Assembly: GCA_041659205.1 (NCBI GenBank)
Contig: JBAZYS010000004.1
Coordinates: 587 to 64,586 of the forward strand
Source of the DNA: Minisyncoccota bacterium
Lineage (GTDB): Bacteria > Patescibacteriota > Minisyncoccia > Phycocordibacterales > UBA9973
Direction of reading: 5' to 3'
DNA: 64,000 nucleotides
Numbering within the stretch: position 1 is the stretch's first letter; every line of letters starts with the position of its first letter. The notes below the pieces were generated by a model. That model made no database searches and was not told the DNA's origin. It worked only from the letters and a program-made list of their open reading frames with translations. A program made the position numbers and the translations under genes. Positions 18,190 to 38,574 of this stretch are shown one piece after another.

Positions 18190-18190
18190 T

Positions 18191-18367: not shown

Positions 18368-18444
18368 ATGCCGCTATCGCAATTAAGTACATAAATATTT
18401 ATGAAATTAAATACTGCAAAAATTAATAACTCTAAATATCAGGT

Positions 18445-18648
18445 ATGCGAATTGACCGCGATCTGCTTCTAAACGGGATGAATAAATACCAGTGTTCAGA
18501 TTGCGGGTGGATATATGATGAGGCTATAGGATATCCCGAGCGGGGCATAGCTCCTGGAACCAAATGGGAAGATGTTCCTGATGACTTTAAATGTGCGAAC
18601 TGCAGTAACAGAAAAAACACCCATAAGTGGAAGAAGTTGAGAGAATAA
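18445..18648 (+). CDS. rubredoxin (likely true start at the internal ATG 18478, [10 protein letters not shown])
   Basis: [12 protein letters not shown]...PDDFKCANC gives the two CxxC pairs and aromatic core of rubredoxin. Confidence 0.8.
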
Positions 18649-18661
18649 TTACTAAATAAGT

Positions 18662-18698
18662 ATAAAAAAAACGCCCCGAAGTCGAGGCGATTTTGAGA
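18662..18698. terminator. bidirectional Rho-independent terminator between rubredoxin (+) and the 18712..19386 gene (-)
   Basis: A8 run, GC hairpin CGCCCCGAAGTCGAGGCG, then TTTT. Confidence 0.5.
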
Positions 18699-18711
18699 TG
18701 GATAGCGATGT

Positions 18712-19386: not shown

Positions 19387-19523
19387 TTCGTGCCTTCCTT
19401 TCTGTTGGGTGGAATTGTGGTTGGAAAAACTTCAAAGTGAGCTAGGATCTTTTTGTTACAAGTATTTAAGGTGCTTAATCCTCTTTAGCAATAACATATT
19501 TATACAAAAAAGTCAATATCAAG

Positions 19524-19552
19524 TTGATAAATAATGTTTTTTAAGGTATTCT
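19524..19552 (+). promoter_or_regulatory. candidate sigma70-type promoter for tRNA-Gln
   Basis: TTGATA, 17-nt spacer, TATTCT, about 20 nt upstream of the tRNA 5' end. Confidence 0.3.
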
Positions 19553-19571
19553 GTAGAAGTTTTAAGAATAT

Positions 19572-19645
19572 TGGGAGATCGTCTAACGGTAGGACAGAGG
19601 CCTTTGAAGCCTTTAATCTAGGTTCGATTCCTAGTCTCCCAGCCA
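19572..19645 (+). tRNA. tRNA-Gln (anticodon UUG) with encoded CCA
   Basis: TGGGAGATCGTCTAACGGTAGGACAGAGGCCTTTGAAGCCTTTAATCTAGGTTCGATTCCTAGTCTCCCAGCCA. Anticodon loop CTTTGAA. T-loop TTCGATT. Confidence 0.85.
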
Positions 19646-19735
19646 AGTCGTGATAGGTTATCTCGCACGAGATGCGTAGAAACCAAACGATGCACTATTC
19701 AGTCAAAGCATACCTGCTGAGAGCAGTATTCAGAA

Positions 19736-19764
19736 CAAAAAAACACCCTAATCGGTGTTTTTTT
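19736..19764 (+). terminator. Rho-independent terminator downstream of tRNA-Gln
   Basis: A-run, ACACC-ctaatc-GGTGT hairpin, T6 run. Confidence 0.55.
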
Positions 19765-21853
19765 GTTTGGTCTGATTTATCTTTCGGAGAAACTCTGTAT
19801 ATGCTATATTAGATTTAATATGGATGAATTTTTGGCTAACCTTTTACCTGGAAATTATTGGATAACAAAATCCATGGAATTTTCAAAGACCAATACCAGT
19901 GGCACTCTATGGTATCTTAAAAAATGGTTTGTTTACTATTACTATATTTTCTTTAAAAAAACGATACACGAGAATGATTATTTAGAAATAATAGAAATTT
20001 TTGATAAATTTATAATATCGCTAGATTCACGTGTCCAGGATAAAGCCAGGGGATTTTTTTATGAAATAGATATAAGGGCAAATTTTACAAGAATGAATGC
20101 TTTTTGTGACACCAGCGGAACTGTCTTCCCATCAGCTCGAGAAGAAGCCCAATCCATGGTTGAAGCTAAAAAGTTTTATTTTATGTATGTTATGGGCATA
20201 GGAGGACAAAGTGGTTATAAAAAAGAAATATTAGAACTTATCCAAGCTGGCACCTCATACACTGAGATAAAAAAAGTTATGGTAGAAAAAATGGAAAGTG
20301 ATGGAATACAATCGAACGATATAAAAATTCAATTTTCAGATTTTCCCGCCGCTATTCGCAATGAGAGACAAATATTTTTTTACTATGGGTTATTTCATGG
20401 TAGCGACAAGAAAGATTTGTCTGGTTTCTATACTATGACTCGACTAGGTAGATCAATAATATCTGCAACATTCTATGAATTAATAATTATATGGGAACAT
20501 CAAAAATTAAAGATGATATCCCAAAATCCAGATACGAAAATTGATTTAGGTAGCCATACCGTTAATACAAATTTGAATTATCCTGCTTTTGGTATCCATT
20601 ACCATCCATATGTAGCACTGTTAAAGACTCTAACAAACTTACAAACAACCAGTAAAGAAATCTATCAATTTTATATTGCTAGACTAAAAAATTCTCACGA
20701 TTTGAATGTTCTTTCGGAAAAAGTTAAGACCACACCTGCAGCGATAGAAGATATAAAAACAAAAATTGCATCTTTTAACAGAAAGGGAGATTTAGCAACG
20801 GAAGATTTTCATAAAGAATTTAAAAAATATGTCTTGGGGATTAGTAGTCTACCTTTAGATAATAATACTAATTTGTTCTCTTTTCTTTCTGAAGATGGAC
20901 TTGAGGTTGAGGATAATCCAAAAATTAGTTTTGTAATTAAATGCTACGACATAATTGCTAAATACTTAGATTTAAAAAATTCAGATAACTATAAAAACTT
21001 TGAAGGTAGTTTAAGACAATATTATCTTGCGCAAGTTAATAAAACTCCTTTCGAATATGACCCAGAAATAACATATGAATGGCATAAATATATAATATCT
21101 CCCGAGACTGCAATTATTTTAAGTGTTATCTACATATACTGCGCGCTAAAAAATAATAAATATGGTTTTGATTTAAGTGAAGCAGAAATTAAAGCCAACT
21201 ATAAGGAATTCAAAAACCTTTTGGAAATCACGGGTATTGGTAAGCAAAGTGATTTTATAGAAAACATACAACGAATTCAATCAGAACTCTCAGAAGGATC
21301 ATTGATGATGGCTTACGATACAGAGGAAGAGGAAATTCCTACTGTGTTTGATGAACTGGTTGATGAAAGCAAACTTGCTGAAATTTCAAAACGTACTAGT
21401 GCATTTAATGTTACCAGAAAAAGAAGTTCTGAAGTCATAAATGCTGTCAGAAGTTATTATCGAAAAAACTTTGAGCTTCCACCGGATAATCTTATTAAGT
21501 GTGATGCTTGTAGTGAGAAAACTTTTATGACAAAAGGTCAGTATGCTTATCTGGAATTTCATCATTTCATTCCTTTCTCTACTGATAATGGTCCGGATCA
21601 TTATCTAAATTTAGTTGGAATCTGTCCAATTTGTCACCGAAAATTCCATCATGCCACTAAAGATGTTAGGAAGGCTCTTTATGAAAACCTGTCAACAAAC
21701 AATAATATGAGAAAAACTCTAGATTTTCGTGTAAATAAATTATACGAGGAACGTGTACTCGAGCCATTAAATATTGAATTTCTCAGAAAGGAAAATATCA
21801 TCTCAAGGGAGAAATACGAAACTTACATGAATCAAGAAATTGTTGTTAGTTAA
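19763..21853 (+). CDS. large protein with a C-terminal HNH endonuclease domain (probable restriction endonuclease of the adjacent R-M module; likely true start is ATG 19820)
   Basis: C-terminal CDACSEK...EFHHFIPFS...NLVGICPICHRKFHH is the CxxC...HH...CxxC-H HNH/beta-beta-alpha-Me motif. Converges on and overlaps the MTase operon by 8 nt. Confidence 0.65.
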   Translation: MFGLIYLSEKLCICYIRFNMDEFLANLLPGNYWITKSMEFSKTNTSGTLWYLKKWFVYYYYIFFKKTIHENDYLEIIEIFDKFIISLDSRVQDKARGFFYEIDIRANFTRMNAFCDTSGTVFPSAREEAQSMVEAKKFYFMYVMGIGGQSGYKKEILELIQAGTSYTEIKKVMVEKMESDGIQSNDIKIQFSDFPAAIRNERQIFFYYGLFHGSDKKDLSGFYTMTRLGRSIISATFYELIIIWEHQKLKMISQNPDTKIDLGSHTVNTNLNYPAFGIHYHPYVALLKTLTNLQTTSKEIYQFYIARLKNSHDLNVLSEKVKTTPAAIEDIKTKIASFNRKGDLATEDFHKEFKKYVLGISSLPLDNNTNLFSFLSEDGLEVEDNPKISFVIKCYDIIAKYLDLKNSDNYKNFEGSLRQYYLAQVNKTPFEYDPEITYEWHKYIISPETAIILSVIYIYCALKNNKYGFDLSEAEIKANYKEFKNLLEITGIGKQSDFIENIQRIQSELSEGSLMMAYDTEEEEIPTVFDELVDESKLAEISKRTSAFNVTRKRSSEVINAVRSYYRKNFELPPDNLIKCDACSEKTFMTKGQYAYLEFHHFIPFSTDNGPDHYLNLVGICPICHRKFHHATKDVRKALYENLSTNNNMRKTLDFRVNKLYEERVLEPLNIEFLRKENIISREKYETYMNQEIVVS

Positions 21854-22589
21854 CTATTTTTATTTTTAAGTCTTTTGGCTTTGTTTCTATTGTAGTTTTT
21901 ATATAGGCTGGATTTATTTCATACCCTATGCAATTTCTTCCAGTTTTATAAGATGCAAAAAGAGTAGACCCTGATCCTAAAAATGGATCTAAAACCATGT
22001 CACCTTTTTTAGTAAAAAGATTGATACCTCGTTCGGCTAATGCAACAGGATAAAAAGCAGGATGAGGATGTTTTGATAAAATTGATCCGGCATTTTTTAC
22101 TATATGCCAAGAATTTATATCTTTTAACTGATCATTTTTGTAGTCATTATAGGTGTAATCTTTATTTAGTATAAGTTTTCCTTTTGAGGCAATAATAATA
22201 TATTCAAAACGATCTGTGAGTTTACTTTTTTGAGTTGGAACACCACTAGATTTATGCCAAATATTCATTTTGAAATTTTTAAACCCAATTTTTTTAAGTT
22301 GTTCGTAAAAATCAATATGTATAGGGTAATAATGATTCTGCACCGTTCTAGAGTTTATATTTATTGCAATAACTCCGTCTTTCTCTAAGACTCTAAAACA
22401 TTCTTTCCAAACCTTATTTAAATCATCAAGATATTTATTATAGGTTTGTTTATACCCAATTTGATCTTTAATTTCATAATCTTTTAAATCCCAATATGGA
22501 GGCGAAGTGAACACCAATTTAACAGAATGGTCCTTTAAATTAGACATTTTTAAACAAGATTTATTATATATGGTGTAGTTCTCCTTCAT
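21846..22589 (-). CDS. DNA methyltransferase, beta-class (N6-adenine or N4-cytosine)
   Basis: Motif IV TSPPYW near the N-terminus and motif I DPFLGSGST near the C-terminus. Confidence 0.85.
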   Translation of the reverse strand: MKENYTIYNKSCLKMSNLKDHSVKLVFTSPPYWDLKDYEIKDQIGYKQTYNKYLDDLNKVWKECFRVLEKDGVIAININSRTVQNHYYPIHIDFYEQLKKIGFKNFKMNIWHKSSGVPTQKSKLTDRFEYIIIASKGKLILNKDYTYNDYKNDQLKDINSWHIVKNAGSILSKHPHPAFYPVALAERGINLFTKKGDMVLDPFLGSGSTLFASYKTGRNCIGYEINPAYIKTTIETKPKDLKIKIVN

Positions 22590-23142
22590 CGATTTTTTTA
22601 AAATTATTACTGATACAAAGTAGTGTGTATTTTTTGTTTTTTATAGATGACAATTTAATTCTTTTTAATAATTCTTCTGGTGTTAAAATCTCATGCCCTA
22701 TAGTATTAGCTTTCCCATCATCAATTATTTTGATCCAAACAGTTCCTGGGTCCTTGCCTAATATGTTGTAATTCTTTGCTCGTTTACCCCATTCTACATC
22801 TTTCCATATATGTTTTTCTCTTATAGGATCCTTATTGAAAAAGTAATTTTCACCTAAATAAGCTCCAATTATAATATATATCTCTTTTGTTGGGGTTTTC
22901 TTATCTAACGTAAACGGATATATCCACGAAATTCTAAAGGCATGTTTAAAATATTTATTTATGAACGGCTCGAAAGTGAAGATATCTGAAGATTTCATAA
23001 TAAACCAAAATAAAGAATCTGGTGAAAAATTATAGTCCAGTTCTTTTGGATTTATGAATTTTTTTGAATTAGTTAAATCAATAACAGCAGATCCTATTAT
23101 TTTTTTATTTTCTTTTATCTTTTTCATCTTTGACATCATCAA
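22564..23142 (-). CDS. hypothetical protein sandwiched between two methyltransferases (possible R-M specificity/control or nuclease component)
   Basis: Translationally coupled (overlaps both flanking MTase genes). No recognised motifs. Confidence 0.35.
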   Translation of the reverse strand: MMMSKMKKIKENKKIIGSAVIDLTNSKKFINPKELDYNFSPDSLFWFIMKSSDIFTFEPFINKYFKHAFRISWIYPFTLDKKTPTKEIYIIIGAYLGENYFFNKDPIREKHIWKDVEWGKRAKNYNILGKDPGTVWIKIIDDGKANTIGHEILTPEELLKRIKLSSIKNKKYTLLCISNNFKKIDEGELHHI

Positions 23143-23998
23143 TTCTTTTCTGAGACACCTTACAATAATCTAAGTCAAGATCTATACCAATGAAATTTCT
23201 TTTTAATTCTCTACTAACTTTTGCAGTTGTTCCACTGCCTAAGAAGATATCTACCACCATATCTCCCTTATTTGATGAAGCTTTAATTATTCTCTCGATT
23301 AATTTTTCTGGGAATTGGCATGGGTGAATAGTTTTTTCGTTGCTAACATTAACAACTCTATCAATATACAAGAAATTATCACTTAGATCAGACTGACTTC
23401 TTTCATTGTCTTTTTTAACTTGTTCAATAAAATATTTTATTTCTTCTGGTTTTAAATCTTTACTTTTAAATTCCCAAACATCTGTTGGGTTTTTACCTTT
23501 TGGATTTACTCTTGGATCATTTTGCCACTTTGCTGGAATACGAATATCATCTAAATTAAATTTGTAATTGTCTTTATCTTTTACAAACCAAAGTATGTTT
23601 TCATATCTACCTGATAATCTGTTTTTGGTATTAATTCCACCTTCAAAATGCCAAATTATCCAATTTTTTAAATAAAATCCTGCATCTTTAAAAATCTTGT
23701 AATAAATTGCTCCTAATGGAATTATTTCATTATCAAGTGGTGTTTGTGCGACATTCCAAAAGACTGAGCCGTTTGATGCCAATTTATCATAGAGTAAATT
23801 TACTGTTTTCGTATGATATTCAAGATAGTCTGCAAAAGATTTATCTATTTCGTATTTTTTACCTACGAAGTACCCAGGACTTGTAACCATTAAATCAATA
23901 GAATTATCATTAAAATCAGCAAGGGCTAAATTTGTATCACTATTAATTATATAATCTTTTTTACCTTTTATATATTTTTTTGTTATTGAAGTTTTCAT
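23105..23998 (-). CDS. DNA methyltransferase, beta-class (second MTase of the module)
   Basis: Motif IV-like TSPGYF near the N-terminus and motif I DIFLGSGTT near the C-terminus. Confidence 0.8.
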   Translation of the reverse strand: MKTSITKKYIKGKKDYIINSDTNLALADFNDNSIDLMVTSPGYFVGKKYEIDKSFADYLEYHTKTVNLLYDKLASNGSVFWNVAQTPLDNEIIPLGAIYYKIFKDAGFYLKNWIIWHFEGGINTKNRLSGRYENILWFVKDKDNYKFNLDDIRIPAKWQNDPRVNPKGKNPTDVWEFKSKDLKPEEIKYFIEQVKKDNERSQSDLSDNFLYIDRVVNVSNEKTIHPCQFPEKLIERIIKASSNKGDMVVDIFLGSGTTAKVSRELKRNFIGIDLDLDYCKVSQKRIDDVKDEKDKRK

Positions 23999-24095
23999 CT
24001 GTTGCCTGTTAGTATATATAATACATTAATTTACTAGCATTTCCTATCTTTACAAAACTGTCTTTTTGTATGAAATAATACATAATGTCATTTTT

Positions 24096-25415
24096 CTATA
24101 ATAATCCAATCTCCTTATCTTTTAATACTATTTTACTCTTTAGACATCCTAGCAATTCACGTTTTTCAACACCTTGCCCCTCTTTCAATATGTACTTTGC
24201 ATAATTTCGTATATCGATATCTTTAACCTCAATTTTATCTTTGATTCCAAGAACTGATCTTTGAAACTTTTTTATCCTTTCAACTTCTGTTTTAATTTTT
24301 TCTTTTATACCTATTTCATTAATATCTATTTTTTCTATCAATTCTTCAAACTGCTTAACTAGATCAATTTCATTAATATAGCCACATTTGCAATCTCTAT
24401 CTTTAGATTTGTTGCAACCATAATAAACATGTCGGTGTACATTACCATTCTTTTGTTTCTTAAACTTTTCATCTGGGGTTATGCCTGATCCACATAGTCC
24501 ACAAGTCATTAACTTGGTGAAAGCAAATTCCTTACCCTCTGACCTAACAAACTGACTTTTGATTTGTGCTTGTACTTCATTAAACAATTCCTTAGTTATG
24601 ATTGGTTCATGTTTTCCTGTGTACCAGTTACCACTTTTAACTGGATACTCAAATACTCCATAATAGAAGTGGTTTTGAAGAATCATATAAATATTACCTA
24701 AACTTAGATTTTTGTTTCCACTAGCAGTTTTGAAATTTAGATCAAACTTAAGCCATTGATATATCTTTCTTCCACTCCATTTTTCATAAGCAACTTTTTC
24801 AAACATCTTTTTAATAATAGGTGCTCTATCAGGATCAATAATAGCCTGACACTTTCTATCAACTCTTTTTTCTTTTAAATAGCCGGTAGGAGCAGGTCCA
24901 GGCCATAATCCCATCTCCACTCTTGTTCTTAGACCTCGTTTAACATTGATACTTTTATTATCGTTTTCTAATTTTGCTTGAGAACATAAAATCATTAAAA
25001 GAAATTTTTCACTTGGTGTGTTTGTGAATGATTGTCCGAAAGTTCTTATCTCAACTAATAATTTCTGATCCATTAGATCAACTATTGATCCTAAATCACC
25101 AGCATTTCTTGAAAGACGATCAGGATGCCACACAAGTATTCCATTAAATCTTTCTCTTTTTATATCTTCCAATATCTCTTTATATACTGGTCGCTGTCCT
25201 GAATCTTTAGCTGAATGTGCCTCTCTTCTAACATCTACGATGTTAAGATTTTCTCTATCTGCTATAGCCAACATTTCTTTAACCTGAGAATCAATTGAAA
25301 GAGCTTGTTTCTCATCTGATTCAGTTGACTTTCTAGCATATAAAACATAATTAATTTTTACTGTCGGAATAATAGCTCTTGTGCCAATTAGTCCAAAATT
25401 TGTTTGTGTCTCCAT
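24096..25415 (-). CDS. large serine recombinase (resolvase/invertase catalytic domain plus recombinase and zinc-ribbon domains)
   Basis: N-terminal YARKSTESDEKQALSIDSQ (catalytic Ser region), then ...HPDRLSRN. C-terminal Cys cluster (CGLCGSG...CNKSKDRDCKC). Confidence 0.85.
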   Translation of the reverse strand: METQTNFGLIGTRAIIPTVKINYVLYARKSTESDEKQALSIDSQVKEMLAIADRENLNIVDVRREAHSAKDSGQRPVYKEILEDIKRERFNGILVWHPDRLSRNAGDLGSIVDLMDQKLLVEIRTFGQSFTNTPSEKFLLMILCSQAKLENDNKSINVKRGLRTRVEMGLWPGPAPTGYLKEKRVDRKCQAIIDPDRAPIIKKMFEKVAYEKWSGRKIYQWLKFDLNFKTASGNKNLSLGNIYMILQNHFYYGVFEYPVKSGNWYTGKHEPIITKELFNEVQAQIKSQFVRSEGKEFAFTKLMTCGLCGSGITPDEKFKKQKNGNVHRHVYYGCNKSKDRDCKCGYINEIDLVKQFEELIEKIDINEIGIKEKIKTEVERIKKFQRSVLGIKDKIEVKDIDIRNYAKYILKEGQGVEKRELLGCLKSKIVLKDKEIGLL

Positions 25416-25419
25416 ACCT

Positions 25420-25750
25420 CATGATGTCAGAGAAAGGGTCTTTTGCTAAGACTCGCTTGTTGGCAACTTGTTGGTAACTTTCCTCTGTGATTTAAAGGTT
25501 CTGCGATAGGATGGGCTTGGAATAATAGGGTCGAAAGTGGTATTATTCATTTACAAGTAAATAAGTAGTAGCCTAAACCTTTGGAAACAAAGGCATGGCG
25601 AAGAAGTCGATCAAGCGTAAAGAACCTATCATATAGGGTCGCTTGATCGCCATATTGGGAAACCAGTATGAGTACCGCAAGGTACTACCTATGTGGTAGG
25701 CTTTTTGCGTCTTACCCTAGGATTTTATAAATAAAACGCAACAAAAAAAT
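25420..25750. other. GC-rich structured non-coding region upstream of the serine recombinase gene (candidate recombination site or regulatory RNA)
   Basis: No ORF. Several perfect hairpins (TCGATCAAGCG/CGCTTGATCG 10 bp, GTACCgcaaGGTAC, GGTCTTttgctaAGACT). Confidence 0.3.
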
Positions 25751-25753
25751 ACC

Positions 25754-26233
25754 ATGAGCGATCAAGCTGGTAAAAAATTGTGTCCGCATTGCAAGCAGGA
25801 AGTAGATATAAAAGCGAGTCGATGTCCACATTGTCAGGGGAAGATATATGTTTGGACATGGAGTAAAAAGTTAATAGCAGGATTTATTGTCTTTATATTC
25901 TTAAGTGTCATTTTCTCTAGCGGATCAAGTAGATCAAGTACCCCTGTTACTACTCAACAAGGTCCTAGTAATGTAGAAGTATGTGTTGAATCAGAACATA
26001 TCCTTGAAGGATTTTTGAAATCACCATCAACTGCAAAATATCCAACATGTAATAGCATTACTATCGAAAGATTAGCCAATGATCAATTCAATGTCAGATC
26101 ATATGTTGACTCTCAAAATGGATTCGGGGCTATGGTGAGAAGTAACTGGTCAGTTAAGTATCATTACACAGACAGTGGAACACGAACACAATTAGATTCA
26201 GTTGTAATTGATGGGAAAGAAATGTATAAGTAA
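25754..26233 (+). CDS. zinc-ribbon/TM-anchored hypothetical protein
   Basis: CPHCKQ...CPHCQG ribbon, one TM, Ser-rich linker. Confidence 0.4.
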   Translation: MSDQAGKKLCPHCKQEVDIKASRCPHCQGKIYVWTWSKKLIAGFIVFIFLSVIFSSGSSRSSTPVTTQQGPSNVEVCVESEHILEGFLKSPSTAKYPTCNSITIERLANDQFNVRSYVDSQNGFGAMVRSNWSVKYHYTDSGTRTQLDSVVIDGKEMYK

Positions 26234-26235
26234 AT

Positions 26236-26676
26236 TTATTTCTTTTTCTTTTTGGTTGGTTTAACATCTTTCTGTTTTTCTTCATTGGCAGGTTTCTTAA
26301 ACCATTTATCTTGGAATTTTTTTAGCCTTTCTGCTCCAAGTTTTACCTTACGATCATATTCTTCTTTTGTCTCGCGTTCATTATGTATATGAATATGAGG
26401 TCTTCTAAATTCAGGATGCCTACAGGCTAACCAAAACTTGGTATAACCAGGATCCTTATTTTGGATTCCACCAAGCACATTACTCTCCGCAAAATCATTG
26501 ACTAAACGGATACCCATTCCCATGGCTTCTTCAACAAGCCCCCTAAATTCAAAGTCTTCATTCATCCAACGATAGAAAGTATTTCTAGATATACCAACCT
26601 TTTCGCATACGACAGAAATTATTGGAGTCTTCTCTAATTCCTCTATGAATTTTTTCTTTACACTAGCGTTCTTCAT
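26236..26676 (-). CDS. HTH protein resembling a phage terminase small subunit
   Basis: N-terminal HTH (VCEKVGISRNTFYRWMNED), FWLACRHPEF motif, Lys-rich tail. Confidence 0.45.
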   Translation of the reverse strand: MKNASVKKKFIEELEKTPIISVVCEKVGISRNTFYRWMNEDFEFRGLVEEAMGMGIRLVNDFAESNVLGGIQNKDPGYTKFWLACRHPEFRRPHIHIHNERETKEEYDRKVKLGAERLKKFQDKWFKKPANEEKQKDVKPTKKKKK

Positions 26677-27931
26677 AGTGTTCTATGATCGCTTTGCGAC
26701 CTGTTAGTTTCTCGTATCTGTGGATGATTAAGTCGCAAAATTGTGGTTCTAGTTCACATCCATATACTCTTCGACTAAGAGCTTCTCCTGCGATAATAGT
26801 GCTACCTGATCCCAAGAAACTATCTAAGATTATGTCATCAACCTTGGTGCATCTTTTGATAGCTTTTTCGTAAAGTTGTGGAGGCTTGCTGGTCGCATGT
26901 GTATATTCTTTGGCTGGGAGTCGCTTAACTGCCCATATGTCCGATATTTGCTCAAGTAGATTATTCCCCGTACCCATTTCTTTGTTCATCACTTCGTTTA
27001 GATTTGTAACTGTTTCGGCTAAGTATGGTTTACCACGAATACCATACACTGCCGGTTCGTAATTTTTATTGAACGCTACAGAAGGTACGGGATTTTGCGA
27101 ATTTTTTAGCCAAATTGCCACTCGCTTATTGTTAATGCCGAGCGAACGATAAATGTCTTGGACTACACCGATATAAATTTGATCGCAAAAATAAAACACG
27201 TGAGTGTCGCTATGTGATACTGCAAGTGCACATTCAAGACTATCCTTTAAGAATTTTTTATATTCCTCAAACGTACGATGATCATTTACTTGACCACCAT
27301 ATGATTGATTTCCACCCAAACCACTATCATAATTTACATCCAGATTATACACGGAGTCGCTAAAAATCATTGATGCTTTTTCTTGTCCAAGTAATCGTTT
27401 TAGATTTTCTTGTTTTGTGGAATCTCCACACAATAACCTATGCTTGCCCAAAACTATAATATCGCCAAGCTTTGTTATTGGTTTCTTAATTTTCTTTAAT
27501 TCTTTTTCGATTTCAAAATTATCATCAATGACTTCTTTTTCCTTATCCCAAATTTTTGTGAGATTGATTTCATCAAACCCAGAATCAATGAGAACATCAA
27601 ACTTAAATGATTTTAGGGACTGGAAATCCCATTCGCCATCATTCAAGTTGCTTTCTAGAGCTATTTTTGTTCTTTCATCTTTTGTGAGGCTACGACTTGG
27701 CACTAAAACATTTACTTTTTTTACTCCAAGTTGCTGAAGAACAACTTTTCGCTGATTTCCAGAGAGTATCGTATTATCTGTATCAATCACGATTACATCA
27801 TGAAAACCACGTTGTATTATTCTTTCTTTCAACTTTTCTAAACCCAACTTTGTTATCTTTCTTGGATTGTCTTTCCAGACTAATAAATTTTCGACATCCC
27901 TCACTTCTGTAAACCATTGTAATTTTTGCAT
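26663..27931 (-). CDS. ParB-like nuclease domain fused to a DNA methyltransferase (phage-type orphan MTase)
   Basis: N-terminal ParB/Sulfiredoxin-like region (VWKDNPRKI...ILSGNQRK). C-terminal MTase motif I ILDSFLGSGSTIIAGE. Confidence 0.8.
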   Translation of the reverse strand: MQKLQWFTEVRDVENLLVWKDNPRKITKLGLEKLKERIIQRGFHDVIVIDTDNTILSGNQRKVVLQQLGVKKVNVLVPSRSLTKDERTKIALESNLNDGEWDFQSLKSFKFDVLIDSGFDEINLTKIWDKEKEVIDDNFEIEKELKKIKKPITKLGDIIVLGKHRLLCGDSTKQENLKRLLGQEKASMIFSDSVYNLDVNYDSGLGGNQSYGGQVNDHRTFEEYKKFLKDSLECALAVSHSDTHVFYFCDQIYIGVVQDIYRSLGINNKRVAIWLKNSQNPVPSVAFNKNYEPAVYGIRGKPYLAETVTNLNEVMNKEMGTGNNLLEQISDIWAVKRLPAKEYTHATSKPPQLYEKAIKRCTKVDDIILDSFLGSGSTIIAGEALSRRVYGCELEPQFCDLIIHRYEKLTGRKAIIEHYEER

Positions 27932-28243
27932 AGATTTTTTCTATAAAAAGTTACTTAATAATTTTCCATAATTTTTAAGATTCTCTCGACAGAAAATCTA
28001 TGCTTGTTACCAGGGATTTATCTAGTTACCCGCTAAAACTTTATCAAATAAGTGCACAACTATGTGTTGTCTATGAATAGAAAAAAGAAGATCTCCGTAA
28101 AAACCCTTATATTAATAAGGGTAAATTTGTAATATAGAAAAATATTTTAAATTTATATTTTTTAGAAAGGCTGGCAGTGAGGGTATGCCAAAAATAGTGG
28201 ATACAATTTACTGGTCCGCTTTATAAAAATATTATTAGTTAGG

Positions 28244-28744
28244 TTAACAAGTAAACAAATTAAGATTTATTAAACGAAAAGTCATAGCTTTTTCACTAAC
28301 TTTATACATATCACATAGTGTCTTTATTTCTTTTTCTGAAATACCATGAGAGTTAAGTTTTTTTACATCTTCTTCTAAGAATTTTTTGGGCATTAAAAGA
28401 GCGGCAGCAAATTGATCTGCTTCAGTTTCTTTAAAATTTTTAATATCATTTTCTTTTAATTCCTTTCTGTAATCGACAAAAGTGTCGTCTTGTTGATGAA
28501 GGAAAAAATGTCCCAATTCATGAGCAATGCTAAATCTTTGTCTAACAGGTGCCTCATTATTGTTTATTCCAATTAGTGCATGTCCATCCTTTCTGATAAG
28601 CATTCCAGAGAATTCCTTACTTGGAGCACGGCTAATTTTAATCTTTTGAGCAATTGCAATTTCTTCTATTGGGACAGGTCTACTTTTAATATTTAAAGTA
28701 TCTAAAATCTCTTGTGTTTTTATTTCAATTTTCTGTGTGATCAT
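28244..28744 (-). CDS. ImmA/IrrE-family metallopeptidase (CapP-like)
   Basis: HEXXH motif HELGHFFLH. Directly downstream of, and co-directional with, the XRE gene. Confidence 0.8.
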   Translation of the reverse strand: MITQKIEIKTQEILDTLNIKSRPVPIEEIAIAQKIKISRAPSKEFSGMLIRKDGHALIGINNNEAPVRQRFSIAHELGHFFLHQQDDTFVDYRKELKENDIKNFKETEADQFAAALLMPKKFLEEDVKKLNSHGISEKEIKTLCDMYKVSEKAMTFRLINLNLFTC

Positions 28745-28750
28745 GATATA

Positions 28751-29107
28751 TTACTTTTTATTTTTAAACAGTCGCTCTGCCCATGCGGCAGCTTTTTCTC
28801 CTTTCTCCTGAGCAACTTTACGAATATCGACTTTAGTAATGGCGTATCCGTCTGGTAAGACGGGAAAAAAATCTTCAACTTCACAATTAAACAAAGTAGC
28901 CAATTTCCAAAGTGATACAGCTGAAACGTTATTCCTACCATTCTCTATATGTGTAACCGCTTCACGAGATATTTTTAAATGATCGGCAACTGTTTGAGCA
29001 CTAAGTCCAAGTGACCCTCGCAATTGCTTTATTGTCTTGCCAATTTCTTTTTTAATTTCATTGTCTGCGGCATCTCTATCGTCTATTGTAACTTTTTTCT
29101 TTTTCAC
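28751..29107 (-). CDS. XRE-family helix-turn-helix transcriptional regulator (CapH-like)
   Basis: HTH_XRE core LGLSAQTVADHLKISREAVTHIENGRNNVSAVSLWKLATLF. Confidence 0.8.
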   Translation of the reverse strand: MKKKKVTIDDRDAADNEIKKEIGKTIKQLRGSLGLSAQTVADHLKISREAVTHIENGRNNVSAVSLWKLATLFNCEVEDFFPVLPDGYAITKVDIRKVAQEKGEKAAAWAERLFKNKK

Positions 29108-29142
29108 ATGAAATAGGTAATGTTGATAATGCGGTCCAAGAT

Positions 29143-29187
29143 ATACCGACTGGTATTCTTTGTACCAAGGCTGGTACTATAAATACC
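29143..29187. promoter_or_regulatory. cluster of short palindromes (operator-like sites) in the divergent promoter region between the XRE regulator and the Ubl operon
   Basis: ATACCgactGGTAT (29143-29156), GTACCaaggctGGTAC (29162-29177), GGTActataaaTACC (29173-29187). Further GGTAT half-sites at 29215-29219. Confidence 0.5.
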
Positions 29188-29250
29188 AATTGATACATCT
29201 AGTAACCTTGCTATGGTATCAGGTTTGGGTGTAATATTCAAGTACGGTCA

Positions 29251-29547
29251 GTGGGCGCCGTATTTATTATAAAAGCCGACAGAATTAAATTTATGGTAGA
29301 CAATAATAAAAAAGAAAAGGATAGTGTCGTGGTTCACATTGATAAATCAGAATATCGTTCTCCTAATCCCACTACTGGTGTGGCGCTTTACGCTTTGGGA
29401 AACATCAATTCGGCCGAATATGATTTATATCAAGAGGTACCTGGTCACGGAGATGATAAACTAATACCTGCTGACACAACAGAGATTAAACTTAAAAATG
29501 GAGAACATTTTTACAGTGTTCAGAAAAAAATTAACCCAGGAGCATAA
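29251..29547 (+). CDS. ubiquitin-like beta-grasp protein of the multiubiquitin family (single domain; GTG start at 29251 or ATG at 29293)
   Basis: Pattern VHIDKSEYRSP...TGVALYALG...YDLYQEV...DDKLIPADTTEIKLKNGEHFYSV matches my recollection of multiubiquitin-domain proteins. C-terminus ...INPGA. First gene of a tightly spaced 4-gene operon with E2/E1/JAB. Confidence 0.55.
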   Translation: MGAVFIIKADRIKFMVDNNKKEKDSVVVHIDKSEYRSPNPTTGVALYALGNINSAEYDLYQEVPGHGDDKLIPADTTEIKLKNGEHFYSVQKKINPGA

Positions 29548-29550
29548 GCA

Positions 29551-29937
29551 ATGGCAGCAATAGAGTTACAAAAAGAGGACGCTTCGTACTTAGCTGAGAA
29601 AAGTTATCAGTATGAATTGTTCCCCGAGAATAACGAGTTGCATGTGATTATAAAGGAATTTCCGTTTCCAACTAGTTTATATTCGCCAAGTACAGCAGAG
29701 TTGTTGATTAAAATTCCACCAGGATATCCCAATACTCAATTGGATATGTTTTGGACTAATCCAGAAATCAAGAAAGTTGATGGTCAGGCTCCTGCAGCAT
29801 CTGAAACTCGTGAACAACATCACGGGCGTAGCTGGCAACGTTGGTCTAGACATTACGCGTCGGGGTGGCGACCTGGGATCGACGGACTAAGAAGTTTTAT
29901 TCAATCTATTAATGCCGAGCTACTAACGGGCAGATAA
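29551..29937 (+). CDS. E2/UBC-like protein (prokaryotic E2 family) with no cysteine in the predicted product
   Basis: 128 aa. Position in the operon (3 nt after the Ubl stop). IKIPPGYPNTQLDMFWTNPEI resembles the E2 HPN-loop region. Zero Cys residues in the translation. Confidence 0.45.
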   Translation: MAAIELQKEDASYLAEKSYQYELFPENNELHVIIKEFPFPTSLYSPSTAELLIKIPPGYPNTQLDMFWTNPEIKKVDGQAPAASETREQHHGRSWQRWSRHYASGWRPGIDGLRSFIQSINAELLTGR

Positions 29938-29941
29938 CAAC

Positions 29942-31327
29942 ATGGAATACAGCATATCTTTTAAAGAGGAAGACTATCAACGCCTCGTAGAGCATTTATT
30001 CTCTAATCGTACTACGGAATGCGCAGCATATCTTTTATGCGGTGTATCTAGGAGCGACACTGAGATACGCTTGCTTGTTCGTTCAGTTATTCCTGTAGAG
30101 GATGCGGATATTGAAGAATCTTCTCCTGTGCATATGAAAATAAGGTCGCTGTCGTATGTTCGCGCAATTAAACAGGCACGCAAGGCAGGTGAAGGATTTA
30201 TTTTTGTGCATTCGCACCCTAAAGAAAGCCCTCAGCATTCTAAGCAAGATGATATAGAGGAGGAAAAACTTTTCAAAACTGTTTATCAAAGAATTCCCGA
30301 TATGATACATGCTAGTTTGGTCTTATCGGAGCCATCACGATTTTCTGCACGTGTGTGGTTGGATGATGGGTCTAACATTCCAGTCAGTGTAGTTAGGTCA
30401 ATTGGGCATAGATTCCGTTTTTTTAGCAACCACGAAGACAAAAACCCTCATCCAGAATTTTTTGATCGGCAAATTAAAGCTTTCGGCAAAGACATACAAT
30501 CAACTCTTAACAAACTAAAGATTGGTATAGTGGGTCTTGGTGGAACTGGTTCAGCGGTGGCTGAGCAGCTTATTAGACTTGGAGTTGGTACCTTATATCT
30601 TTTTGATGATGATACCTTTGATTCTACAAATATAAATAGAGTTTACGGTTCACGTCTATCTGATACAAAAAAACTAAAGGTTGAGATAATACAACGCCTG
30701 GCTACGGAGATAGGGTTAGGGACTATCGTTAAAATTTTCAACAAAAAAATAACCTATCAGAGTGTTTTGCAAGATTTAAAAAAATGCGATATTGTTTTTG
30801 GTTGTACTGATGACAATTGGGGTAGGTCAATTTTATCTCGCCTCGCTGTCTATTATTTAATCCCAGTCATTGATATGGGCGTAAAAATAAACTCTAAAAA
30901 TAACGAGATAGTTTCTATCCATGGACGCGTGACTGTACTCTTACCAGACCATGCGTGTTTATTTTGCAGAGATCGCATTGATTCAGGTATAATGAGTACA
31001 GAAATTGCGGAAGCAACTAACCCTAGCGATGCGGCAACACGGAAGAAAGAAGGTTACATTCCGGAATTACCAGACAGTGCACCAGCGGTCATACCATTTA
31101 CCACAATAGTTGCAGCTACTTCAGTCAGTGAACTTCTGCATCGCCTCACAGGTTTTCTTGGTGAAGATCGAAAAACCAACGAAGTGATACATCTCTTTGA
31201 CCAGGAAAGAATCGGTAAGAATGCTCGTGCTTCTGAAAATGGATGTGTTTGTGGCGATAAAAATCATATTGCTCGTGGAGATGTCGATCCACATGCACTT
31301 GGATTAACATGGAGAAATGAAGATTAA
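29942..31327 (+). CDS. JAB/JAMM deubiquitinase-like peptidase fused to an E1-like (ThiF/MoeB) adenylyltransferase
   Basis: JAMM motif FVHSHPKESPQHSKQD (HxHx7Sx2D). E1 Rossmann IGIVGLGGTGS, DDDTFDSTNINR, FGCTDDNWGRS. Zinc motifs CLFC and CVCGDKNH. Confidence 0.85.
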   Translation: MEYSISFKEEDYQRLVEHLFSNRTTECAAYLLCGVSRSDTEIRLLVRSVIPVEDADIEESSPVHMKIRSLSYVRAIKQARKAGEGFIFVHSHPKESPQHSKQDDIEEEKLFKTVYQRIPDMIHASLVLSEPSRFSARVWLDDGSNIPVSVVRSIGHRFRFFSNHEDKNPHPEFFDRQIKAFGKDIQSTLNKLKIGIVGLGGTGSAVAEQLIRLGVGTLYLFDDDTFDSTNINRVYGSRLSDTKKLKVEIIQRLATEIGLGTIVKIFNKKITYQSVLQDLKKCDIVFGCTDDNWGRSILSRLAVYYLIPVIDMGVKINSKNNEIVSIHGRVTVLLPDHACLFCRDRIDSGIMSTEIAEATNPSDAATRKKEGYIPELPDSAPAVIPFTTIVAATSVSELLHRLTGFLGEDRKTNEVIHLFDQERIGKNARASENGCVCGDKNHIARGDVDPHALGLTWRNED

Positions 31328-31661
31328 AAAACTTTTTTACAATTGGTGGAATTCAGCTCGTTCTTTTAAATACAAGAAGGTTTATTTTGTTTCCTCTATA
31401 AATAAAATACCTGAAGGTAAATTAGAGAAACATATTTATATTGTATCTAAAGAAGGAAAAAATCTATGGGTGGTTATGGATTGTCCAAAAGGACATGACA
31501 GACGCATAGAGGTAAATTTAATGAAAAGCATTAAACCTTTCTGGGAAATACAACTTCAGAACGGTAAGCTTACATTATATCCATCCATAGTTGTTTCAGG
31601 AAAATCCTGTAATTGCCATTTTTGGCTAAGAGATAATAAAGTATACGATGCACACTGGTAG
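31317..31661 (+). CDS. small Cys/His-rich protein, probably DUF6527-like, the usual partner of multiubiquitin/E1/E2 operons
   Basis: Overlaps the E1 gene stop by 11 nt. CPKGHDRR...SCNCHF putative metal ligands. DUF6527 assignment is from memory. Confidence 0.45.
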   Translation: MKIKKLFYNWWNSARSFKYKKVYFVSSINKIPEGKLEKHIYIVSKEGKNLWVVMDCPKGHDRRIEVNLMKSIKPFWEIQLQNGKLTLYPSIVVSGKSCNCHFWLRDNKVYDAHW

Positions 31662-31704
31662 TTTTTGGAAATTAATATAAATTACAAGCAAAAAAACAAG
31701 AATA

Positions 31705-32076
31705 ATGAGTCCTGATTTTACAAAACAAATGGTAGATATGCTTTTAGGTTCCATACCAAAAGGAACAATTTGGGCTTTGCAATTTGTCTGGGATATCATT
31801 AAAACTTTCTTGTCGAATAACTTAATGGCTGTAACTATTATTCTTATTATTATCCTCATCTATGCAGTCCTTAGGGCTCTTATGGGAGATTGGTGGGTAT
31901 TAGGGAAAGTACTACATAAGTATTTATATTGGGGATCAGGGCTACTTATCGCCTTTATATGGGGTCCTGAAGTGTTTGCAGGCACTTATGTAGACATATG
32001 GTTATATATTCTATCTATAACTTGTTTTATCGTGGTTGGAGTAATTTTGAACAAAACAGGACTAAAAAGAATTTAA
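31705..32076 (+). CDS. membrane protein (3-4 TM) immediately downstream of the Ubl operon
   Basis: Hydrophobic helices. No known family. Confidence 0.4.
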   Translation: MSPDFTKQMVDMLLGSIPKGTIWALQFVWDIIKTFLSNNLMAVTIILIIILIYAVLRALMGDWWVLGKVLHKYLYWGSGLLIAFIWGPEVFAGTYVDIWLYILSITCFIVVGVILNKTGLKRI

Positions 32077-32119
32077 TTTCTCTTTTGGTTTTATTTTAAA
32101 TTTAATATAATTAATTGGT

Positions 32120-33472
32120 ATGAGTGAGAAATATTTAAAATCTCATCAATACTATATTGATCTTTACGATCGTGGTACCGTAGAGGTTTGTCGTAGGCTA
32201 GATAAGCCATCTCCTGAACCTGATAAAGAAGAACTTAAAGAAAAAAAGATAACTAGAAGACAAGCAAAAGTTTTAGATAAAGGTGTTCGAGATTGGATTA
32301 TTCATTTTCAAGCTGGTGAAAGATATCTTAAAAAAGACTCAACAATTCGTGAGTGGATGGATAGAGATCAAAAGAGAGATGAGTTATATGAAAATGCAGA
32401 AGCTCCTGAAGATATTCGCTGTCTTACTTGTCGTAACAAAATGAAACCGACATTTAAAGAACTCTGGTTAGAATCCGATAAACCAGATCGTGTTTTATTT
32501 ATGTACGATTGTCCTAATAAATGTTTACCGAGACGATCATTCTTTCATGATGGTGAAGAGTGGAGAACAAAACCACATCTTTGTATCCGTTGTAATTCTC
32601 CAGTCACCCAAACTTCAGAAGATGATGGTGTAAAAATGATTACTACTTCTACTTGTAAGAAATGTGGGCATATTGAGAAAGAAGAATATACATGGAGTGT
32701 TAAAAAAGAGGAAGATGGTCTCGATGAGAATTTTGCAGTTGATAGAGATCGTTTCTGTTTAAGCGATGAGGACGGTAAAAAGTTTCAGGATGAAAAATGG
32801 AACATGGAAAGTGCTGGTAAGTTCATGGAAGAGTGGAAAGAAAAAGAGAAAGCAAAAGAAGAAAAATTAAAACAAAATCCAAAGGGCTTTCATCTTGAGG
32901 GTGCAGGTTACACTTGTTTTATCTGTGGTGATAGTACTCCTGAGGGTGATAATTGGTACGACAAGTGGGGTATAAAATGTTTAGTCTGCCAAAAAGCAAT
33001 CGATGAGGGTGAAATACCACCTGCTTTGGCTAAATATCAAGACACTTGGTATACGAAGCATGACTTTGAATATTACTTTAATGTTAATCGTTTTGGTTTA
33101 CAAAAGTGGATTAAAAACGGAATATTAAGACCTAGGACAATCAGTCATTATGGTAAAGGCGAACATACACAAATCTTTCTTATGAAAGATAACAAAGGAC
33201 TATTGCCACCTAAAAAATTACTTAAAGGTCATTCAGTAAAAACAGTAGAAAAAGACGGCAAAGAATATACTCATATGGAAAAGTGGTATAGATTTGTTGA
33301 TCCTTTTAAATATCTTAAGAAATACAGAATTATGAGATATTTAAGAGTTGTTCCACCCGAAGAGGTAAAAGCAAAAGAAGAGGCAGAAAAGAAAAAACAG
33401 GAAGAAAAACAGGCACGTCGAGAACAGAGGAGACTTTTAAAACAAAAAATTAATCGTAAAAAGATAAATTAA
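32120..33472 (+). CDS. Lys/Glu-rich protein with six CxxC pairs (multi zinc-ribbon), hypothetical
   Basis: CLTCRN, CPNKC, CIRCNS, CKKCGH, CFICGD, CLVCQK. Strongly charged KE-rich N- and C-termini. Confidence 0.45.
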   Translation: MSEKYLKSHQYYIDLYDRGTVEVCRRLDKPSPEPDKEELKEKKITRRQAKVLDKGVRDWIIHFQAGERYLKKDSTIREWMDRDQKRDELYENAEAPEDIRCLTCRNKMKPTFKELWLESDKPDRVLFMYDCPNKCLPRRSFFHDGEEWRTKPHLCIRCNSPVTQTSEDDGVKMITTSTCKKCGHIEKEEYTWSVKKEEDGLDENFAVDRDRFCLSDEDGKKFQDEKWNMESAGKFMEEWKEKEKAKEEKLKQNPKGFHLEGAGYTCFICGDSTPEGDNWYDKWGIKCLVCQKAIDEGEIPPALAKYQDTWYTKHDFEYYFNVNRFGLQKWIKNGILRPRTISHYGKGEHTQIFLMKDNKGLLPPKKLLKGHSVKTVEKDGKEYTHMEKWYRFVDPFKYLKKYRIMRYLRVVPPEEVKAKEEAEKKKQEEKQARREQRRLLKQKINRKKIN

Positions 33473-33482
33473 ATAATCCACT

Positions 33483-33801
33483 GAAATGCTGGCAATAGTT
33501 TCGAAGTACTATTTAAATACTACTTCTTGGAACGTTGAGAGAGAGCGCTTGCCGCAGCCGATTTCTCGTCTTTGGTAGCTCTCGGATCTTTCAACACCTT
33601 AGCTGCTTCAGAAGCAACTTTAGCACTGGTTCTTCTAGACATAAATTATATCTGTTAGTTGTTTTGATAATTAGGAAGCTCGACCTTTGTTCACTTCCCC
33701 GAACAATCGCCTTATTGGAAAGCAACTGTTCAGGAAGGACAAAGGTGAGTAGAACCTAACCAATACAAAACCCGGGGCACCATTTTTATTGCCAGCATTT
33801 C
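33483..33801. repeat. GC-rich ~320-bp module flanked by perfect 15-bp inverted repeats, at the right edge of the island
   Basis: GAAATGCTGGCAATA (33483-33497) / TATTGCCAGCATTTC (33787-33801). Contains a 40-codon minus-strand ORF and a long imperfect hairpin (CCTTTGTTCACTTCC ... GGAAGGACAAAGG). Confidence 0.5.
33520..33642 (-). CDS. small basic hypothetical protein (40 aa), not in the ORF track
   Basis: ATG at 33642 to TAG at 33520, MSRRTSAKVASEAAKVLKDPRATKDEKSAAASALSQRSKK. High GC relative to surroundings. No clear RBS. Confidence 0.25.
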   Translation of the reverse strand: MSRRTSAKVASEAAKVLKDPRATKDEKSAAASALSQRSKK

Positions 33802-33977
33802 AAAGGACTAATTGATACAATATATCATAACTTACAAGTTTTACCCTTAGCCTTAGGGACTGTCACTTTTGTCACTTTTTGAGGTGCTCGAGATGCGTCG
33901 TTTTGGTATAATAAAAGGGTTAAAAATAACATTACAGGGTAAGGAACTGATTGGTTCTAACTCGAGTCTCCCAGCTT

Positions 33978-35348: not shown

Positions 35349-35363
35349 TAAGTTTCAAAATAT

Positions 35364-35723: not shown

Positions 35724-35740
35724 TTTATATAATAAAAACA

Positions 35741-35986: not shown

Positions 35987-35997
35987 ATTTAAACATT

Positions 35998-36873: not shown

Positions 36874-36898
36874 TCTAATCATGTTATAATATTTTCAT

Positions 36899-38560: not shown

Positions 38561-38574
38561 GTTATTATATCGTA

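Follow-up and report, generated by a model that had tools for sequence, protein, structure and literature searches.

What does the DNA represent that lies between a tRNA-Gln gene and a partial repeat of its 3′ end, located some 14.3 kb further downstream in the genome of a Minisyncoccota bacterium? The DNA analyzed here is a 64-kb stretch (positions 587 to 64,586 of contig JBAZYS010000004.1, assembly GCA_041659205.1), in the following called the window, and all coordinates refer to its first nucleotide, with (+) and (-) denoting the forward and the reverse strand. An earlier note on this DNA had described the region next to the tRNA-Gln gene as an integrative island. We propose, with a probability of roughly 0.7, that positions ~19642-33973 are one integrated copy of a mobile island of candidate-phyla-radiation (CPR, Patescibacteria) bacteria, which was joined to tRNA-Gln by its own serine recombinase. 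The island belongs to a large family built on this recombinase, the LOOT RNA and two conserved ends, which is widespread in CPR bacteria and apparently undescribed. In the literature searched, no account of the recombinase family, its attachment (att) sites or a link between LOOT and the recombinase was found, which is not proof of novelty.

Related loci were collected around homologues of the recombinase (84 loci, plus six from IMG/VR, ~90 in total). Labels such as L001 or L117 denote the related stretches used for comparison, and the 26 listed loci mentioned below are those with a tRNA detected downstream of the recombinase gene.

The two ends of the island and its unoccupied target

ARAGORN detected two tRNA genes in the window, one of them an intact tRNA-Gln(UUG) gene at 19572-19645 (+; Rfam tRNA, 64.8 bits), which is the intact boundary of the island and is syntenic with DnaX in relatives. 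Alignment of its 3′ part, GGTTCGATTCCTAGTCTCCCAGCCA (19621-19645), with GGTTCTAACTCGAGTCTCCCAGCTT (33953-33977) gave 18/25 identical positions in direct orientation, in agreement with the partial repeat reported before. The match includes the 11-mer AGTCTCCCAGC, which had been expected not to be widespread and occurs in the window at 19633 and 33965 only. It is the top same-strand match within the 64 kb (next best 16/25), and in 1000 composition-preserving permutations, a same-strand match of at least 18/25 was reached in 2.8% (p ~0.03). The 11-mer had also been considered unlikely by chance, which did not hold: Three exact 11-mer matches to the tRNA plus 20 nt exist at other places in the window, so that the 11-mer is at chance level. 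The in-window significance of the repeat alone is modest, and we judge the repeat to be real by comparison with related loci. At 19120, the tRNA end is matched at 16/25 positions, which was regarded as chance.

In the related loci, the tRNA-like repeat (33953-33975) turned out to be the 3′ tip of a conserved right end of 115 nt (33861-33975, +), which was defined by an alignment of 17 copies. A profile built from 16 related loci detected one copy in the window (nhmmer E = 3e-27). From 5′ to 3′, the right end consists of two GTCACTTTT repeats, GCTCGAGATGCGTCG, a TAAAAT box, CTTACAGGG and the tRNA-like P arm GGTTCTAACTCGAGTCTCCCAGC; across the family, its tip reads GGTTCTARCTCGAG-N5-CAGC. The motif was found in >20 loci, always oriented like the tRNA and located beyond the recombinase gene. 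Its last 25 nt resemble a tRNA 3′ end in every family member, including the elements located at tRNA-Trp (family consensus GGTTCTAGCTCGAGTCGGCCAGC versus GGTTCGAnTCCnAGTCnnnCAGC in tRNA-Gln), and the terminal bases track the resident tRNA, with CAGC at Gln and CTGC or CCGC at Trp. The repeat is hence not simply the duplication of a tRNA 3′ end for which it had been taken, being a conserved arm borne by the element and resembling tRNA ends.

Conservation of the right end stops after ..CAGC. The sharpest case is provided by L112 and L113 from two samples, which show 100% identity along 12.1 kb, ending with the ...CAGCC of the motif, and are unrelated beyond. Homologues of the core genes at window positions 5315-7605 are located 0.4-0.9 kb past the right-end motif in L127 and L124, with nothing recognisably element-derived in between. 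A role of the motif as RNA was rejected, because Rfam contained no match with E <= 1 and a stable fold was not obtained (z = -0.1). We read the right end as a predicted protein-binding DNA site; in a sigma-70 scan, its conserved TAAAAT box was not called as promoter.

The left end, GCCAAGTCGTGATAGGTTATCTCGCACGAGATGCGTAG (19642-19680, +), is conserved as well and recurs after tRNAs in related loci. Of the 26 listed loci, 24 have a sequence of this class, a(g/c)tcgtgatag(g...)cacgaga.gcgt, after their tRNA, be it Gln, Trp, Asn or Ser, and it is absent at the tRNA of L088 and L120; such sequences also follow a pseudo-tRNA motif in tandem arrays. The left end folds into a small hairpin (z = -2.9), and just inside of it a terminator-like hairpin was detected at 19733-19768 (+) by a consensus scan, the sequence of which is kept in L117 and L085. 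Most tRNAs preceding the left-end sequence encode CCA immediately before it. Because a CCA is encoded by 22/26 recombinase-linked tRNAs and by 0/5 unoccupied tRNA-Gln genes, the element appears to supply it, and the encoded CCA of the tRNA-Gln in the window was probably acquired in this way. The tRNA-Leu gene in the window is also without encoded CCA.

Two footprint-like arrangements were observed at such tRNA ends. In L112 (~18100-18290), tRNA-Gln is followed by P′ (the left-end sequence), a 22-nt 3′ fragment of tRNA-Trp and a second P′. In L082 (~20120-20230), the last 15 nt of tRNA-Gln(CUG) are tandemly duplicated, with CCA on the second copy only.

Sites without the island were found on both sides of the target, as the earlier note had anticipated for relatives. 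The left flank carries the core genes for ParB, RelA/SpoT, TopA, DprA, SerRS, Dus and DnaX, and a DnaX scan placed the window among Candidatus Nomurabacteria/Paceibacterota of the CPR, with L001 (77% identity) and L008 (73%) as the closest loci; for the exact DnaX protein, no identical entry is on record. The order tRNA-Leu, ParB, RelA, TopA, DprA, SerRS, Dus, DnaX, tRNA-Gln is common to the window, L001 and L008. In L001 and L008, tRNA-Gln ends with ...AGTCTCCCAGC, directly followed by aaaa and further A-rich DNA, with neither CCA nor island genes. On the other side, which would be the B′ side of the target, a gene for a 456-aa protein (33978-35348, +) lies outside the island and begins three bases after the right-end motif. 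Only 22 homologues of this protein were found, and in L168 and L169 tRNA-Gln(UUG) is followed within ~75 nt by a homologue with 68% identity, no island separating the two. Both halves of the unoccupied site are therefore available from L001/L008 and L168/L169, which represent different species and not sister strains.

These data bear on the simplest alternative, namely a chance repeat within a variable stretch of the chromosome that contains no defined mobile unit. The in-window p of ~0.03, the chance level of the 11-mer alone and the fact that 34-51.8 kb is variable too would be compatible with it; the right-end profile with E = 3e-27, the conserved left end, the exact breakpoint between L112 and L113 and the empty sites speak against it and render it extremely improbable. 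The proposal of a ~14.3-kb integrative island with restriction-modification (R-M) and ubiquitin-like (candidate defence) modules is borne out, and both ends are conserved features of a family.

Recombinase, LOOT RNA and a model of integration

The presumed integrase is a large serine recombinase of 439 aa (24096-25415, -) with the domains Resolvase, Recombinase and Zn_ribbon_recom, a match to a PHROG integrase (5e-64) and the catalytic motif YARKST, including the catalytic serine, at residues 27-32. All 8000 of 8000 scored candidate homologues had E <= 1e-20 and came from many CPR lineages; the best 120 homologues are 77-100% identical and the closest ~200 are 70-100% identical. The tRNA and the recombinase gene converge in each of the 26 listed loci (15 Gln, 5 Trp, 2 Asn and 4 Ser), and all of these target tRNAs end in G73-C. 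The gap between recombinase gene and tRNA ranges from ~95 bp (L161, L154) up to ~9 kb and, where examined, contains differing R-M systems.

Upstream of the recombinase gene and divergent from it, cmscan identified a LOOT RNA (Rfam RF03000; 25570-25686, +) with 85 bits at a gathering score of 46.4, the match covering model positions 1-121 of 121. The structured GC-rich region noticed earlier at this place is this RNA. LOOT is located on the opposite strand, 127-232 nt upstream of the start codon of the recombinase gene, in at least 40 of the 73 loci with enough upstream sequence, this count by sequence profile being a lower bound. Examples with the same placement are L087 (8839-8961), L127 (9731-9849), L117 (9719-9835) and L082 (9718-9841). 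In L085, LOOT lies 7 kb from the recombinase gene, the two being separated by an insertion that consists of a group of small genes and the gene for an ABC-type ATPase. The motif derives from Weinberg et al. 2017, an alignment collection cited in PMC7779021, and the main texts of the literature searched mention neither a function nor a gene association. LOOT as described is an orphan RNA; in the loci studied here, it accompanies a single recombinase family with fixed spacing and orientation, and this constant place beside one recombinase gene is a direct, testable lead to its function.

Direct repeats of tRNA 3′ ends are the classical signature of tyrosine-integrase islands. The earlier note had accordingly considered the repeat as the scar of an older tyrosine-integrase island, into which the serine recombinase would have been brought by a later, unrelated insertion, the present element being a composite. 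An identity of 11 nt, exceeding what a serine recombinase needs, could be taken in favor of this view. The family comparison contradicts it: No tyrosine recombinase was found among the island proteins or among the related-locus proteins scanned or precomputed, the serine recombinase is constant in the family with a convergent tRNA in 26/26 loci, and the left-end sequence, present in 24/26, is equally linked to it. Moreover, the 115-nt motif travels with the serine recombinase in >20 loci, and its last bases match tRNA-Trp where this is the resident tRNA. We regard such a scar as very improbable.

In our model, the large serine recombinase of the island would have joined the attP site of the element to the 3′ end of the chromosomal tRNA-Gln gene, serving as attB. 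The present right end (33861-33973) would correspond to the P arm of attP and the present left end (19642-19680) to the P′ arm. The P arm would mimic the T-arm and the acceptor 3′ strand of the tRNA, and it is because of this mimicry that a partial tRNA repeat would be seen. The exchange is predicted to occur at the non-palindromic dinucleotide CA, corresponding to tRNA bases 71-72, i.e., at 19640-19641 (+) in attL and, in the same register, at 33972-33973 (+) in attR. By this exchange, the tRNA would stay intact and gain G73 plus the encoded CCA from the element, while the original G73-C and the downstream DNA would now follow the P arm, from 33974 onward. The junctions implied by the model are ...CCTAGTCTCCCAGCTTATGTCAATAGAAGG for attB and ...GGTTCTAACTCGAGTCTCCCAGCCAAGTCGTGATAGGTTATC for attP.

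The sites of serine integrases consist of inverted half-sites around a non-palindromic central dinucleotide, which is identical in both partners. Tandem arrays of related loci (L085, L088, L108, L116, L135, L139, L142 and others) contain the motif joined directly to P′ and provide attP-like junctions. The dyad symmetry of 12 P-P′ junctions is highest between bases 71 and 72, with 7.75/20 at a background of ~4.7. Also, the central dinucleotide in the alignments matches the resident tRNA, as Gln elements have CA and Trp elements either CT or CC. Because this dyad symmetry would match the design of serine-integrase sites, the exchange was placed at the CA of 19640-19641 and 33972-33973. In L142, the half-sites TCTAACACGAC and GTCGTGATAGC form near-perfect inverted repeats 12 bp apart; in the window, the symmetry is weaker.

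Several points weigh against integration in this way. The dyad-symmetry signal is modest, with 7.75/20 at the maximum versus 6.33 at the next-best position. Furthermore, attL and attR share 11 identical bases, whereas large serine recombinases are not known to require more than 2 bp of identity. Nine of the 11 shared bases are already present in the family consensus AGTCGGCCAGC, so that the excess amounts to two bases, and a homology-dependent tyrosine integrase is not required to account for it. No recombination product was seen, and IMG/VR contained no circular or free attP junction: A degenerate 36-nt attP pattern gave 0 matches there. The 15-mer GCCAASTCGTGATAG, also searched in IMG/VR, had 76 matches, none of which runs into the P′ consensus, and all were dismissed as chance. 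Conservation between genomes is lacking on the B′ side of the target, which is unusual for the attB of a serine integrase, and 34-51.8 kb is non-syntenic with L008 in addition to the island. Finally, several relatives carry two to three copies of the right-end motif or tandem elements, and a one-step recombination of attP with attB alone does not explain them.

In these relatives, copies of the right-end motif are spaced 0.5-1.3 kb apart (three copies in L085 at 5452-7430, two each in L082 at 1865-2997 and in L108 at 942-1729), and each copy is followed by one to two small genes on the same strand, resulting in a cassette-array-like organization. A different arrangement was observed for L142 (1-3486) and L146 (1907-5392), where DNA of 99.97% identity adjoins two distinct recombinase genes (84% identity at the nucleotide level), indicating a tandem of two family members within one genome. 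Together, multi-copy motifs, stacked elements and footprints show a repeated use of tRNA-like ends as docking sites.

Because of this repeated use, an integron-like reading stays alive at low probability. It could take the form of a fixed platform beside the tRNA, consisting of recombinase, LOOT and motifs, which captures motif-bounded cassettes, so that the 14.3 kb would be platform plus cargo. The unusual conservation of the recombinase (70-100% identity across CPR classes), cargo varying by locus between the backbone parts, the motif copies of L085 (three, each with one to two small genes), L082 and L108 (two each) and the recurrence of the motif-P′ junction within arrays would fit. The window, however, has one motif copy, L001 and L008 are without the entire unit at the same tRNA, the same backbone is found at different tRNAs and in different chromosomal neighbourhoods, and the tandem recombinases of L142/L146 (84% nt) look like stacked whole elements, which makes a fixed platform decidedly unlikely. 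In its boldest version, this would be a CPR counterpart of integrons based on a serine recombinase, with a resident recombinase, LOOT as cofactor or regulator, and tRNA ends and their mimics as reusable docks for defence cassettes. We consider this rather a long shot; if true, the island would be one state of a cassette-shuffling platform and LOOT the first structured RNA tied to site choice or directionality of a serine recombinase. In the window itself, there is one copy of each end.

Backbone genes, cargo and chromosomal surroundings

The gene list of the earlier note (HNH nuclease, methyltransferases, recombinase, TerS-like and ParB/methyltransferase genes, XRE/ImmA pair, ubiquitin-like operon and Lys/Glu-rich protein) proved correct by Pfam, PADLOC and PHROG. 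The backbone of the family has the order P′ arm, recombinase, divergent LOOT, TerS-like helix-turn-helix (HTH) gene, fused ParB-N/methyltransferase (MTase) gene and right end, with variable cargo bays in between. L117 is collinear with the window at 19657-25707 (81% nt identity), a stretch comprising the P′ arm, the HNH gene, both methyltransferase genes, the recombinase gene and LOOT, and again, with 70% identity, in the ParB-MTase gene and, with 85%, at the right end, whereas the cargo at 27.9-33.8 kb differs. From this comparison, we arrive at a conserved backbone with cargo bays.

Bay 1 contains a putative R-M module, which is kept as a block in L117 and in which the methyltransferases are strongly and the nuclease weakly supported. 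The candidate restriction endonuclease is an HNH protein (19820-21853, +; Pfam HNH 2.9e-7; 82% identical in L117), the open reading frame (ORF) of which is open from TTG 19763 with ATG 19820 as likely start; PADLOC gave weak matches to REase_II and mREase_IV (3e-8 and 6e-7). It is followed by an N6/N4 DNA methyltransferase (21846-22589, -; Pfam N6_N4_Mtase 3.9e-47; 93% identical in L117), a 192-aa protein without Pfam, PADLOC or PHROG match (22564-23142, -; 88%) and a second N6/N4 DNA methyltransferase (23105-23998, -; Pfam 3.4e-54; 92%). Bay 2, beyond LOOT, encodes a protein of 159 aa, with a zinc ribbon at the N-terminus and a hydrophobic segment (25754-26233, +; weak zinc-ribbon match in Pfam, phrog_13160 3e-15), which we read as a putative zinc-ribbon membrane protein.

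The two remaining backbone genes encode a small TerS-like HTH protein (26236-26676, -; phrog_4102 2.3e-9), with the similarity to TerS limited to the N-terminal HTH of ~50 residues, and a fusion of ParB-N and N6_N4 MTase domains (26663-27931, -; Pfam; PADLOC MTase_II 1.7e-52; phrog_498 8e-78 and ParB-like PHROGs). Both lie on the same strand upstream of the recombinase gene in 43 loci. In L087, a S-adenosylmethionine (SAM) riboswitch (5923-6029, -; 62 bits) was observed inside a related element, adjoining the ParB-N/MTase gene.

The right-hand cargo, in bay 3, begins with an ImmA/IrrE (M78) metallopeptidase as regulator partner (28244-28744, -; Pfam Peptidase_M78 6e-20) and an XRE-type HTH repressor (28751-29107, -; Pfam HTH_3 1.5e-11), divergent from the operon for a ubiquitin-like protein (Ubl). 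This operon encodes a presumed Ubl of 98 aa ending with ...NPGA (BubA-like; 29251-29547, +), assigned by position and translation in the absence of a family match, a Prok-E2_E protein (BubB-like E2; 29551-29937, +; Pfam 2e-38), a fusion of a JAB peptidase and a ThiF-type E1 (BubCD-like; 29942-31327, +; Pfam Prok-JAB and ThiF, PADLOC E1-E2 models) and a DUF6527 protein (BubE-like; 31317-31661, +; Pfam 3.4e-16), a family described as serine protease (PMC11601596). A stop codon splits the ORF of the presumed Ubl from that of the E2, so that they are separate ORFs and no fusion. JAB-E1 fusion, E2 and DUF6527 in one operon represent the gene set of type I Bub (6E.1). Three ORFs without family match follow on the same strand: a 123-aa protein (31705-32076, +) with homologues in four related elements, a 450-aa Lys/Glu-rich protein with several CxxC pairs (32120-33472, +) and homologues in nine, and a 74-aa ORF from the ORF list (33535-33759, +), the gene status of which is uncertain.

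PADLOC did not recognize the Ubl, E2, DUF6527, 123-aa and 450-aa proteins, and only the E1 domain matched its E1-E2 models of the CBASS (cyclic-oligonucleotide-based anti-phage signaling system) type; the literature is therefore the basis for assigning the Bub operon a role in defence. Bub operons conjugate the Ubl via oxyester intermediates and are often flanked by such repressors, and their biological role is still open (PMC11601596). On the basis of domain content, we infer that the cargo comprises an R-M and a Bub-type ubiquitin-like module as candidate defence systems.

The phage-like genes raise the question of how the island might be transferred. Among the island proteins, neither capsid, portal, tail, large terminase or lysis genes nor a replication gene were recognized with Pfam and PHROGs, and the degraded prophage suggested before is not supported, as no structural genes are present. 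A search against phage databases, which had been recommended, gave PHROG matches for the integrase, the TerS-like and the ParB/MTase protein; at the DNA level, megablast of 19572-44000 versus 50,697 phage records gave no match. An alternative compatible with integration by the serine recombinase, to which it adds a transfer route, is a phage satellite similar to phage-inducible chromosomal islands (PICI-like), which would be packaged in helper capsids via the TerS-like and ParB-N/MTase proteins. We consider it unlikely but worth keeping in view. It is consistent with TerS-like (phrog_4102, 2e-9) and ParB-N/MTase (phrog_498) genes as backbone genes in 43 loci, with the XRE/ImmA pair, with six relatives filed in IMG/VR, and with tRNA islands carrying cargo and terS that are known as tycheposons (bioRxiv 10.1101/2020.12.28.424599). 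On the other hand, no replication, capsid or large-terminase gene was recognized in the window or in L171 and L084, the similarity to TerS covers only the N-terminal HTH, and XRE/ImmA is more simply explained as a regulator of the adjacent Bub operon. The genes for 483- and 491-aa proteins following the TerS-like gene in L171 and L084 were tried as large terminases and rejected, as Pfam gave no support.

Outside the island, ordinary chromosomal genes were said to resume directly after the repeat. This holds only loosely, as 34-51.8 kb is non-syntenic with the closest long relative, L008, in which the next shared genes correspond to window positions 51797 onward. The non-syntenic part, 18.2-51.8 kb, hence extends beyond the 14.3 kb, and because of 34-51.8 kb other rearrangements must have taken place at the locus. 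The stretch 33978-51800, to which nothing in the 21 kb read of L008 corresponds, encodes small enzymes of an accessory type, namely a glyoxalase, an EEP nuclease/phosphatase, a GNAT protein, a hydrolase, a DinB-type polymerase, PanD, a P-type ATPase and CofD; several of these genes are present in L165 in another order, and the stretch looks like a second variable region outside the island. On the left side, a rubredoxin gene (18445-18648) and a 224-aa ORF (18712-19386, -) within 18191-19571 separate DnaX from tRNA-Gln in the window. In L001 and L008, tRNA-Gln directly follows DnaX, and in L001 the tRNA is also inverted. At 54838-58637, two large proteins with C-terminal PG_binding_1 domains, one of them also with HYR, are encoded between the PBP2 and S41-protease genes, which are adjacent in L008. 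L166 (664-4583) carries a reverse transcriptase and bAvd, similar to a diversity-generating retroelement, near a homologue of the 456-aa flanking gene.

Significance and comparison with known systems

In CPR bacteria, with their tiny genomes, the family appears to be a major vehicle of R-M genes and other candidates for defence. A survey of Patescibacteria reported genomic islands with R-M systems and is silent on recombinases and tRNAs (PMC12455944). In our model, a serine recombinase family would do the job of tyrosine integrases at tRNAs by using a tRNA-mimicking arm. The attP and attB candidates, defined from sequence alone, may interest those who mine serine integrases for genome engineering, the target being the end of G73 tRNAs, which are present in almost any bacterium.

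Integrative islands at tRNA genes are commonplace and a hallmark of tyrosine integrases. Tyrosine-integrase islands and prophages of the P4-like type share with the island described here the insertion at the tRNA 3′ end, the tRNA kept intact by element sequence, the tRNA-like repeat at the far end and the accessory or defence cargo. Unlike them, the island encodes a large serine recombinase, its far-end repeat mimics the tRNA (18/25) and is not a copy of it, and the exchange is predicted at a dinucleotide and not within a long block of identity.

Known elements with large serine recombinases include the phages Bxb1, phiC31 and A118, and SCCmec with CcrAB. They have in common with the family the three-domain recombinase encoded inside the element and, probably, a dyad symmetry around a non-palindromic central dinucleotide in the attP-like site. 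In contrast to these elements, the family uses tRNA genes (Gln, Trp, Asn, Ser) as targets, has LOOT as a fixed neighbour and includes tandem arrays; its recombinase is short (439 aa) and unusually conserved (70-100%) across thousands of copies.

With integrons, L085, L082 and L108 share cassettes split by a repeated site-like motif beside a conserved recombinase, whereas the tyrosine recombinase IntI and attC hairpins are lacking (the motif is unfolded), and the window has one motif copy. As to the cargo, the JAB-E1 fusion, Prok-E2_E, DUF6527 and the pair of HTH protein and metallopeptidase are shared with type I Bub (6E.1/DUF6527) operons (PMC11601596), which differ by a BubAB fusion in place of the separate ORFs for presumed Ubl and E2.

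The tycheposons of Prochlorococcus, 27/937 of which have a large serine recombinase (bioRxiv 10.1101/2020.12.28.424599), are likewise islands of small size that target tRNAs and combine a modular backbone with variable cargo, in some cases including terS. They occur in another host phylum, have mostly tyrosine recombinases and often replication genes, and are likened here by description only. In the literature searched, the tycheposons with serine recombinases are the nearest described parallel to the CPR islands.

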